Shown here piece by piece: positions 5,460 to 5,873 of a stretch of 27,323 nt of DNA. The notes under the pieces are model-generated. The model saw only the letters and a list, made by a program, of their open reading frames with translations. It made no database searches and was not told where the DNA came from. Made by a program: the position numbers and the translations under genes. Source of the stretch: a virus. Taxonomy: Duplodnaviria > Heunggongvirae > Uroviricota > Caudoviricetes. The stretch lies in IMG/VR virus record IMGVR_UViG_2693429713_000014; one strand, given 5' to 3'. Each line of letters starts with the position of its first letter. Position 1 is the stretch's first letter.

Positions 5460-5873
5460 TTACATCACCGGACAATCATCAAACTCCGCGTTCCTCGCAT
5501 CATTAATGATGTAAGTAATCACCCCGAATATCGCGGGAGCAGAACCGTAACCGTCATCATCTACTGGTAGCATCTCCCTTCTCCCGCTCTCCAAATTAAT
5601 CAGGTGGTGTTGAGGATGAGTCCGATATCGCTTGATCCTGAACTCCCCGTCGATTGCACATATCAGCAGTGAGCCATCGCAGGCAGTAAGTGACGCATCT
5701 ACCACAAGCAGCGCCCCCAGGAATATTCCTTCCCTGAAATGTGAACGCGATGCCCGCATGAAGTAAGTCGCTGCTGGCTGGCTGGCTGGCTGGCTGGCTG
5801 GCTGGCTGATAAGATGCTGATCGAGTGAGATCCTCGTTTCAACGTAATCGCTGGCCGGTGAAGGGAACCCCAT
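5460..5873 (-). CDS. UmuD'-like protein (LexA/S24 peptidase C-terminal domain), no umuC partner
   Basis: Residues GFPSPASDYVE...LLVVDASL...AIDGEFRIKRY resemble UmuD from about residue 25 onward. Start chosen at the ATG at 5873-5871 with GGAGG nine nt upstream; the track ORF extends further 5' without an RBS. Confidence 0.7.
   Translation of the reverse strand: MGFPSPASDYVETRISLDQHLISQPASQPASQPAATYFMRASRSHFREGIFLGALLVVDASLTACDGSLLICAIDGEFRIKRYRTHPQHHLINLESGRREMLPVDDDGYGSAPAIFGVITYIINDARNAEFDDCPVM
5771..5808. repeat. Tetranucleotide microsatellite (CTGG)8, with flanking partial units, inside the UmuD'-like CDS
   Basis: Directly visible: ctg(ctgg)x8ctg. On the coding strand it encodes SQPASQPASQPA. 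Confidence 0.95.

Follow-up and report, generated by a model that had tools for sequence, protein, structure and literature searches.

A hypervariable tetranucleotide tract as a probable frameshift switch on a prophage-borne humD gene of Escherichia coli

That simple sequence repeats can switch genes by frameshift is textbook knowledge for Haemophilus, Neisseria and Campylobacter, in which the genes concerned mostly specify surface structures or restriction-modification functions. Loops of four bases are poorly corrected by mismatch repair, as is known from the tetranucleotide loci of Haemophilus. To our knowledge, contingency genes based on repeats are not a known feature of E. coli. The tetranucleotide tracts of Haemophilus influenzae gain or lose units at approximately 1e-4 per generation (PMC2651432), and in one passage of a further account (PMC11475388) repeat-based phase variation is presented as typical of small-genome, host-adapted pathogens. 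Within the enterobacteria, 6 bp repeats in mutL of Salmonella and E. coli have been described as 'genetic switches' that modulate mutability (Chen et al. 2010, PMC2955026). The HumD protein of phage P1 (McLenigan et al. 1999, J Bacteriol 181:7005, a work cited in PMC7092418 and PMC4713147), the founding member of its family, is characterized in PMC7092418 as a shortened UmuD that is already activated. The present analysis concerns a humD-like gene that carries a perfect tetranucleotide tract. It lies in a stretch of 27,323 nucleotides (nt), referred to here as the window, from the Caudoviricetes record IMGVR_UViG_2693429713_000014 of IMG/VR. No description of this locus was found in searches of the literature on humD with repeats, on tetranucleotide phase variation in E. 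coli or on the repeat string itself. The comparisons between isolates presented below suggest that the tract is probably a hypermutable simple sequence repeat, acting as a stochastic, slippage-driven ON/OFF frameshift switch on the prophage humD gene.

The humD-like coding sequence occupies positions 5460–5873 on the minus strand. It starts with ATG (MGFPSPASDYVE), the first codons reading ATG-GGG-TTC-CCT, and encodes 137 aa and a stop codon. When the whole window was analysed with Tandem Repeats Finder, positions 5773–5808 were returned as a repeat of period 4 with 9.0 copies, 100% matches and the consensus GCTG; a script recovered the identical 36 nt perfect period-4 run, and Tandem Repeats Finder detected no comparable tract elsewhere in the window. 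By hand calculation, random sequence of 27 kb would contain about 1e-15 such runs. The tract, (GCTG)9 on the plus strand and (CAGC)9 on the minus (coding) strand, corresponds to nt 66–101 of humD, near the 5′-end of the 414 nt gene, and encodes SQPASQPASQPA. It begins 65 nt into the open reading frame (ORF) and the frame is kept, so that the gene in the window, with 9 units, is ON. An earlier note on this DNA, made from the sequence alone, had described a (CTGG)8 tract at 5771–5808; the tract is real, and in the CTGG register it comprises eight full units (5774–5805) plus three bases, with positions 5771–5772 falling outside the perfect run. The folding potential of the repeat is weak: (GCTG)9 was predicted at –7.3 kcal/mol, with shuffled sequences comparable (17 of 200), and (CAGC)9 gave no fold. 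No structure-based explanation of the tract is claimed.

The tract has the structure expected of a repeat-mediated phase-variable locus: it is perfect, it lies inside an ORF, and its unit length is not a multiple of three. To describe the consequences for the reading frame, all lengths from 3 to 20 units were modelled. Unit counts divisible by three yield a full-length HumD of 129 + 4k residues, such that 6, 9 and 12 units add 4, 8 and 12 residues, respectively, where the N-terminal arm joins the core. The other two frames stop after 52–72 or 85–105 residues and lack the conserved core; for the out-of-frame lengths found in assemblies, translation would end after 52–97 residues, either ahead of that core or in another frame. 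At the level of sequence, then, the gain or loss of a single unit is a frameshift, as the earlier note had stated along with the in-frame position of the tract in the window. Among the lengths found in nature (see below), 6, 9 and 12 units are ON, and 4, 7, 8, 10, 11, 13 and 14 units are OFF; the 9-unit and 12-unit alleles that were fetched encode complete proteins of 137 and 141 aa.

The series of lengths observed in E. coli assemblies comprises 4, 6, 7, 8, 9, 10, 11, 12, 13 and 14 units, with the rest of humD identical in the alleles compared. The allele is present in eight complete E. coli genomes, six of which were read directly: strain fEC.1 has 9 units, Ecol_545, C1 and AH01 have 11, CDF6 has 13 and GF8 has 14. 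GF75 and GF161 match GF8 (14 units) by alignment length. Draft assemblies, reached via the invariant neighbouring gene orf80 and via a 37 aa ORF in the 3′-part of humD, add alleles of 9, 10, 11 and 12 units and an interrupted tract of 14, and metagenome contigs add 8 and 9. By exact-sequence look-up, the ON protein of the 6-unit allele (P0121) was found on 12 contigs, the OFF product of the 7-unit allele (P0178) on 16, and that of the 4-unit allele (P0179) on two; these contig counts per length are rough, and look-ups of this kind miss alleles, the 137 aa and 141 aa forms having been reported absent though loci L020–L022 encode them.

It is apparent that these differences in length are found in DNA that is otherwise identical. 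No single-nucleotide polymorphism separates fEC.1 (9 units, ON) from AH01 (11 units, OFF) over a core of 2,130 nt, nor CDF6 (13 units) from GF8 (14 units) over the same core, and the six RefSeq alleles share one intact humD sequence outside the tract. A single flanking haplotype of 1,540 nt carries 8, 9, 10, 10, 12, 13 and 14 units in seven assemblies with no substitutions. At least five length changes, as against no substitution, have thus occurred on this haplotype, which includes both ON (9, 12) and OFF (8, 10, 13, 14) alleles. A rough estimate from these figures puts the mutation rate of the tract at thousands of times that of any one base in its flanks; the tract shifts between frames repeatedly and was not broken once. 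The conserved flanks with a polymorphic tract among close strains, and the occurrence of both ON and OFF alleles of an otherwise intact gene, are features of phase-variable loci. The earlier note had proposed that repeat number be compared among related prophages, and that invariance across isolates would count against phase variation; the comparison instead reveals from 4 to 14 units, in all three frames.

The identity of the gene is clear from profile and structure alignments. The 137 aa product matches Pfam Peptidase_S24 (PF00717) and phrog_811 (UmuD-like), and it scores 207 bits against the NCBIfam HumD equivalog NF051876 ('HumD family translesion DNA polymerase'; cutoff 120), covering positions 1–129 of the 129-position profile. 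This score rises to 217.6 bits when the tract is collapsed to three units. Alignment with E. coli UmuD′ (PDB 1UMU) gave E=5e-19; residue 2 (G) of the query aligns with residue 1 of 1UMU_A and with residue 25 of full-length UmuD in the DNA polymerase V (Pol V) structure 8GMT_B. The cleavable 24-residue tail of UmuD is therefore absent, and the protein begins at the N-terminus of UmuD′ (the equivalent of UmuD Gly25; GFPSPA). On these matches the gene clearly belongs to the HumD family, the pre-activated UmuD′ homologues of phages and plasmids, and its product is a UmuD′ of the phage type, already truncated; the UmuD′-like assignment in the earlier note is borne out and narrowed. Of the catalytic residues of UmuD, Lys97 aligns with Lys and Ser60 with His; an SHF motif is common to nearly all of the HumD family members inspected. 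The HumD family is characterized by the C-terminal S24 (LexA/UmuD) fold, to which the Pfam match points here, and has no need of the self-cleavage Ser-Lys dyad.

In the 1UMU alignment the tract faces a gap of eight residues in UmuD′, flanked by His47 and Pro48, where the N-terminal arm meets the core; eight residues of SQPASQPASQPA thus have no counterpart in E. coli UmuD′, in agreement with the earlier claim that the repeat encodes an insert that UmuD lacks. Because this site falls in the stretch that is most variable among HumD and UmuD proteins (LI-xx-P-x-ATYF), it is plausible that HumD tolerates additional SQPA units. The position of the insert was taken from the sequence alignment to the solved UmuD′ structure. 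An AlphaFold2 model of the 137 aa ON protein was set aside, its mean predicted local distance difference test score being 51.8, with values below 50 over residues 1–54 (alignment of 27 sequences).

HumD genes elsewhere provide the baseline from which the expansion departs. In the humD-type genes of further E. coli prophages (among them that of Nissle 1917; nt identity of about 82%) the site reads LISQPAATYF, from ATCAGCCAGCCAGCAGCGACT, and the norm among the homologues for which DNA was read is two or three CAGC units, with (CAGC)3 the maximum. HumD proteins are mostly 129 aa long among the best 120 cluster representatives from a search of 5.8 billion proteins, and none of the 29 representatives of odd length that were read, among the 120 listed, has an expanded in-frame tract. 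The nearest sister loci, L163 and L164, encode 129 aa proteins in the same dinI-orf80-humD-SRAP layout, with two perfect units and CCT as the Pro codon. As a general matter, (CAGC)7 alone occurs at 120 or more places in unrelated taxa among GTDB representatives (Neisseria, Gilliamella, Streptomyces and others), with none from Escherichia, Salmonella or Citrobacter among the matches listed; that scan informs on general rarity only. A search of a phage collection gave no close match to the locus.

A number of observations weigh against the interpretation of the tract as a switch, for which the evidence consists of comparisons between isolates. The expansion is confined: four or more units joined to this right flank had no match in 185,579 GTDB species-representative genomes, a metagenome scan in which synonymous flank changes were allowed revealed it in this allele only and in no other humD allele, and the (CAGC)3 alleles of other prophages are stable. 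Since the sister loci and the species-representative and metagenome comparisons are all without expansion elsewhere, the expansion is a derived feature of one allele lineage. Approximately 65–73% of contigs appear to be OFF, which is close to the two-thirds expected at random, and no selection for the ON state is visible. On the branch leading to the window there are about 5.6 nonsynonymous and 7 synonymous changes (omega, or dN/dS, of about 0.25), as compared with strong purifying selection in the HumD family (dN/dS 0.01–0.07) and with no nonsynonymous and 11 synonymous changes between L163 and L164. Constraint on the expanded lineage is relaxed, to judge from these ratios, but not absent. 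A deletion variant without the 5′-half of humD is found on about 20 contigs. Finally, three tracts contain independent point interruptions: CAGCCAaC in a 14-unit OFF allele (L014/L024) and, in two ON alleles of 12 units, S-to-N and A-to-T changes, the proteins concerned (P0125 and P0126) reading QPANQPAS and QPTSQPAS.

Interruptions such as these should make the tract more stable, and in two of the three cases the state so locked is in frame; the numbers are too small to interpret. In the deletion variant (L025, P0124), sequence from the tail-fibre side is joined to humD codon Cys65 (MEHLLPN|CDGSLL...), with removal of the tract, orf80, dinI and the invertase gene.

Observations of this kind would fit a runaway microsatellite within a cargo gene that is dispensable and decaying, where a chance (CAGC)3 proto-repeat passed the threshold for slippage a single time and has drifted since, one third of lengths being in frame by chance and the switch having no role. 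The single origin in one allele, the near-random proportion of OFF contigs, the raised nonsynonymous change, the loss of the 5′-half and the appearance of interrupted tracts are as such a history would have them, as is the insertion of IS421 in the neighbouring SRAP gene of two strains. Repeat-based phase variation is, moreover, linked in the passage cited above (PMC11475388) to small-genome, host-adapted pathogens and not to E. coli. Against decay, no second disabling lesion was found in the alleles compared (the six RefSeq loci and the ON alleles that were fetched), the branch has an omega of about 0.25 rather than about 1, ON alleles occur at three lengths and on a haplotype shared with OFF alleles, so that no allele is irreversibly dead, and the tract is pure in most alleles. 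The alleles are, however, too recent for decay to be visible. Drift of this kind is thus weakened as an explanation, and it is regarded as possible but somewhat unlikely.

An ordinary pseudogene was considered and rejected, the allele in the window being intact, with no second lesion in the alleles compared and with the omega value given above. The near-random proportion of OFF contigs, the relaxed constraint, the deletion variant and the interrupted tracts fit a gene that is often OFF, whether as a contingency gene or as a dispensable one that a runaway microsatellite is eroding; the alleles have arisen too recently for the two to be told apart.

Variation at the level of the protein was also weighed, namely that the length of the (SQPA)n linker tunes interactions with UmuC, RecA or the beta clamp and that the frameshifts are incidental. 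In-frame alleles of 6, 9 and 12 units do exist, the insert lies in a variable linker (UmuD residues 47/48), and the two interrupted 12-unit alleles are in effect 'locked' in frame; but most lengths (4, 7, 8, 10, 11, 13 and 14) and most contigs are out of frame, and a 4 nt unit is poorly suited to varying the length of a protein, all of which makes this proposal very improbable. That the length differences are errors of assembly or sequencing in repetitive sequence, as might be suspected from short-read contigs that stop at or just past the tract, is hardly credible, given that all differences are whole 4 nt units with perfect flanks, that lengths recur across independent assemblies (11 units in four, 10 in at least four, and 14 in three GF strains by alignment length), that tracts of 36–56 nt are shorter than an Illumina read, and that finished and draft genomes from different laboratories agree on the structure of the locus.

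Short-read contigs from E. coli, Citrobacter and Salmonella (L028, L029, L150–L156), including 435 nt contigs with only the 3′-part of humD, end approximately 0–35 nt from the tract site. These ends were considered as a possible sign of read-level heterogeneity of the tract, in which respect they are ambiguous: Citrobacter and Salmonella contigs break there too, and L150, which reaches the site, has no expansion. The breaks are more likely due to 5′ humD sequence that is common to several prophages, and they may mark a boundary of recombination or divergence between multiple prophage copies.

When the gene is out of frame, gene callers annotate only the 37 aa 3′ ORF, which was found on 130 contigs, as compared with 177 for the orf80 allele; the OFF proportion of roughly two thirds derives from these counts. 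The 'frameshifted' flag assigned in RefSeq by the Prokaryotic Genome Annotation Pipeline (PGAP) was rejected as evidence regarding the tract, since it is attached in every genome, the in-frame 9-unit allele and L007, where the tract is not expanded, among them. The PGAP model starts at position 5989, which is orf80 codon Met44 (MKQAND...), and matches a 167 aa Salmonella fusion protein, P0017 (MKQANEWIEWYV...); this match indicates that the flag reflects an orf80-humD fusion used as reference. With regard to the fusion itself (P0017/P0018), P0017 of Salmonella enterica represents a cluster of 427 members and joins the 3′-part of orf80 to humD via an upstream out-of-frame stretch (...LSAVQSKRRTIAM), corresponding to 5876–5989 together with 5460–5873 of the window.

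Over the region checked, the window is identical to E. coli fEC.1, whose record is annotated with a prophage with a contractile tail adjoining an icd fragment, iraM and ycgX, a neighbourhood corresponding to the e14 attachment region. The humD gene lies in the cargo region, past the tail-fibre genes and a Pin-type invertase. Upstream of it on the minus strand is orf80 (5876–6118, 80 aa), the stop codon of which precedes the humD ATG by 2 nt. A GGAGG motif resembling a Shine-Dalgarno sequence (5883–5887, minus strand) is situated 9 nt upstream of that ATG, within the last codons of orf80, and is a putative ribosome-binding site for humD. The orf80 product matches phrog_3893 (unknown function; E=1e-36) and gave no match in Pfam or NCBIfam. 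The two genes are probably co-transcribed, and the same arrangement recurs in L007, L011, L163 and L164.

A gap of 74 bp separates orf80 from a divergently transcribed gene of the DinI family (6193–6435, plus strand; Pfam DinI, E=1.6e-20, and RefSeq annotation). A pattern search identified two palindromes of the form CTG-N10-CAG in this gap, each resembling a LexA box: CTGGATAAAAAAACAG at 6136–6151, and CTGTGTATCCATCCAG at 6160–6175 (minus strand, TACTGGATGGATACACAGTG), at the position of which the homologous locus L007 carries TACTGGATGGATATACAGTA. These would be candidate LexA-binding sites, and their placement suggests control of an orf80-humD operon by the SOS (LexA) system. A generic sigma-70 scan returned no minus-strand promoter above threshold. 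Just past the humD stop codon is a candidate terminator, a GC-rich hairpin with a T-run (5433–5452, minus strand), from a consensus scan in which the count of such elements did not exceed the shuffle expectation. Abutting the stop codon is a convergent gene (4791–5459, plus strand) for a YedK-like SOS-response-associated peptidase (SRAP; Pfam SRAP, E=8e-51, and NCBIfam PRK09951).

Taken as a group, SRAP, humD, orf80 and the DinI-family gene (4791–6435) form a cluster of four DNA-damage-related cargo genes at the end of the prophage. DinI inhibits the RecA-mediated cleavage of UmuD, which a protein of the HumD type can do without. The IS421 insertions in the SRAP gene are those of Ecol_545 and C1 (L002 and L003, positions 1–1015), two strains that both have 11 units and an identical core and that come from different hosts (a human in Viet Nam and a cow). 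In the annotation of L013 (window 1527–1694 and 2136–3104), an HNH endonuclease gene and a hypothetical gene are situated between SRAP and the partial icd fragment, which marks the e14-type attachment site. On the other side of the cluster, a Pin/Hin-type invertase gene (6564–7151) adjoins oppositely oriented tail-fibre and tail-fibre-assembly genes (approximately 7142–8600; L013 18692–20760). The segment past the invertase differs in orientation or content among otherwise identical prophages, with about 159 mismatches confined to it, and is consistent with an invertible host-range segment. The tail-fibre region also contains two copies of a 22 bp unit (9062–9103; 81% matches with indels, from Tandem Repeats Finder).

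The ON/OFF frameshift switch favoured here would be expected to operate as follows. Changes in length would arise via slipped-strand mispairing during replication, and a promoter under LexA control, facing away from dinI, would drive the orf80-humD operon. When the tract is ON, HumD would supply an already 'cleaved' subunit of the UmuD′ type to the UmuC of the host, giving Pol V without RecA*-dependent cleavage; when it is OFF, the lysogen would rely on its own UmuD. A population of lysogens might thus be heterogeneous, its cells differing in translesion synthesis and mutagenesis during the SOS response.

A further proposal is that this would constitute a prophage-borne contingency locus for mutability, in which slippage toggles a pre-activated Pol V subunit as a bet-hedging device on damage tolerance and evolvability. 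A minority of lysogens would then be primed for immediate translesion synthesis and mutagenesis upon SOS induction, independently of RecA* cleavage. This proposal is speculative and considered unlikely. The earlier note had spoken of the signature of a phase-variable contingency locus; with respect to phase variability, the length polymorphism in all frames supports that description in part, and frequent, reversible switching within a population would be a prediction of it, but an adaptive role does not emerge from a random ON/OFF ratio, a single lineage, relaxed constraint and deletion variants.

The interest of the locus lies in the occurrence of switch anatomy in E. coli prophage cargo, in a gene from a family that provides the mutagenic polymerase Pol V with a subunit already in its activated form. 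Provided that the ON protein is active, lysogens with this allele would be naturally mixed for SOS mutagenesis and damage tolerance, which would bear on stress-induced mutagenesis and the evolution of antibiotic resistance, and the named strains with 9, 11, 13 and 14 units would offer a simple natural system in which the slippage of tetranucleotides could be measured in E. coli. Should the tract instead be a runaway microsatellite, it would be a rare hypervariable 4 bp marker for E. coli, and a snapshot of the birth of a microsatellite from (CAGC)3 and of incipient gene erosion.

With regard to the systems introduced at the outset, the gene in the window resembles P1 HumD in several respects. 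It starts at the N-terminus of UmuD′ (GFPSPA) and does not need RecA*-mediated cleavage, its carrier is a temperate phage or prophage, the match to the HumD equivalog covers the full length of that model, and SOS-box-like sites lie upstream. Its product is about 69% identical to the plasmid-borne 129 aa HumD P0088, which is presumed to be of the P1 type. Unlike P1 humD, the gene has an expanded, length-variable (CAGC)n tract, which adds eight residues here and puts the gene out of frame in most isolates; it also follows a co-oriented 80 aa gene and resides in a chromosomal contractile-tail prophage at the icd/e14 site.

The tract itself is similar to the contingency loci of H. influenzae (lic, mod and adhesin genes; PMC2651432), in that a perfect 4 nt repeat in the 5′-part of an ORF is frameshifting and polymorphic and yields ON and OFF alleles. 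In contrast to those loci, the host is E. coli, and the target is a cytoplasmic DNA-damage-tolerance factor rather than a surface or restriction-modification function; the tract is also shorter (4–14 units) and has arisen recently at one locus in one allele. With the mutL repeats it has in common an enterobacterial setting and a change in copy number by slipped-strand mispairing, within a mutability gene, that converts functional and non-functional alleles. The mutL repeat, however, is a 6 bp unit in three copies that remains in frame, two residues being lost or gained, and it resides in a core housekeeping gene, the loss of which produces a genome-wide mutator. The humD repeat, by comparison, has a 4 bp unit, is frameshifting and much longer, and belongs to prophage cargo, where it would affect damage-induced Pol V activity.

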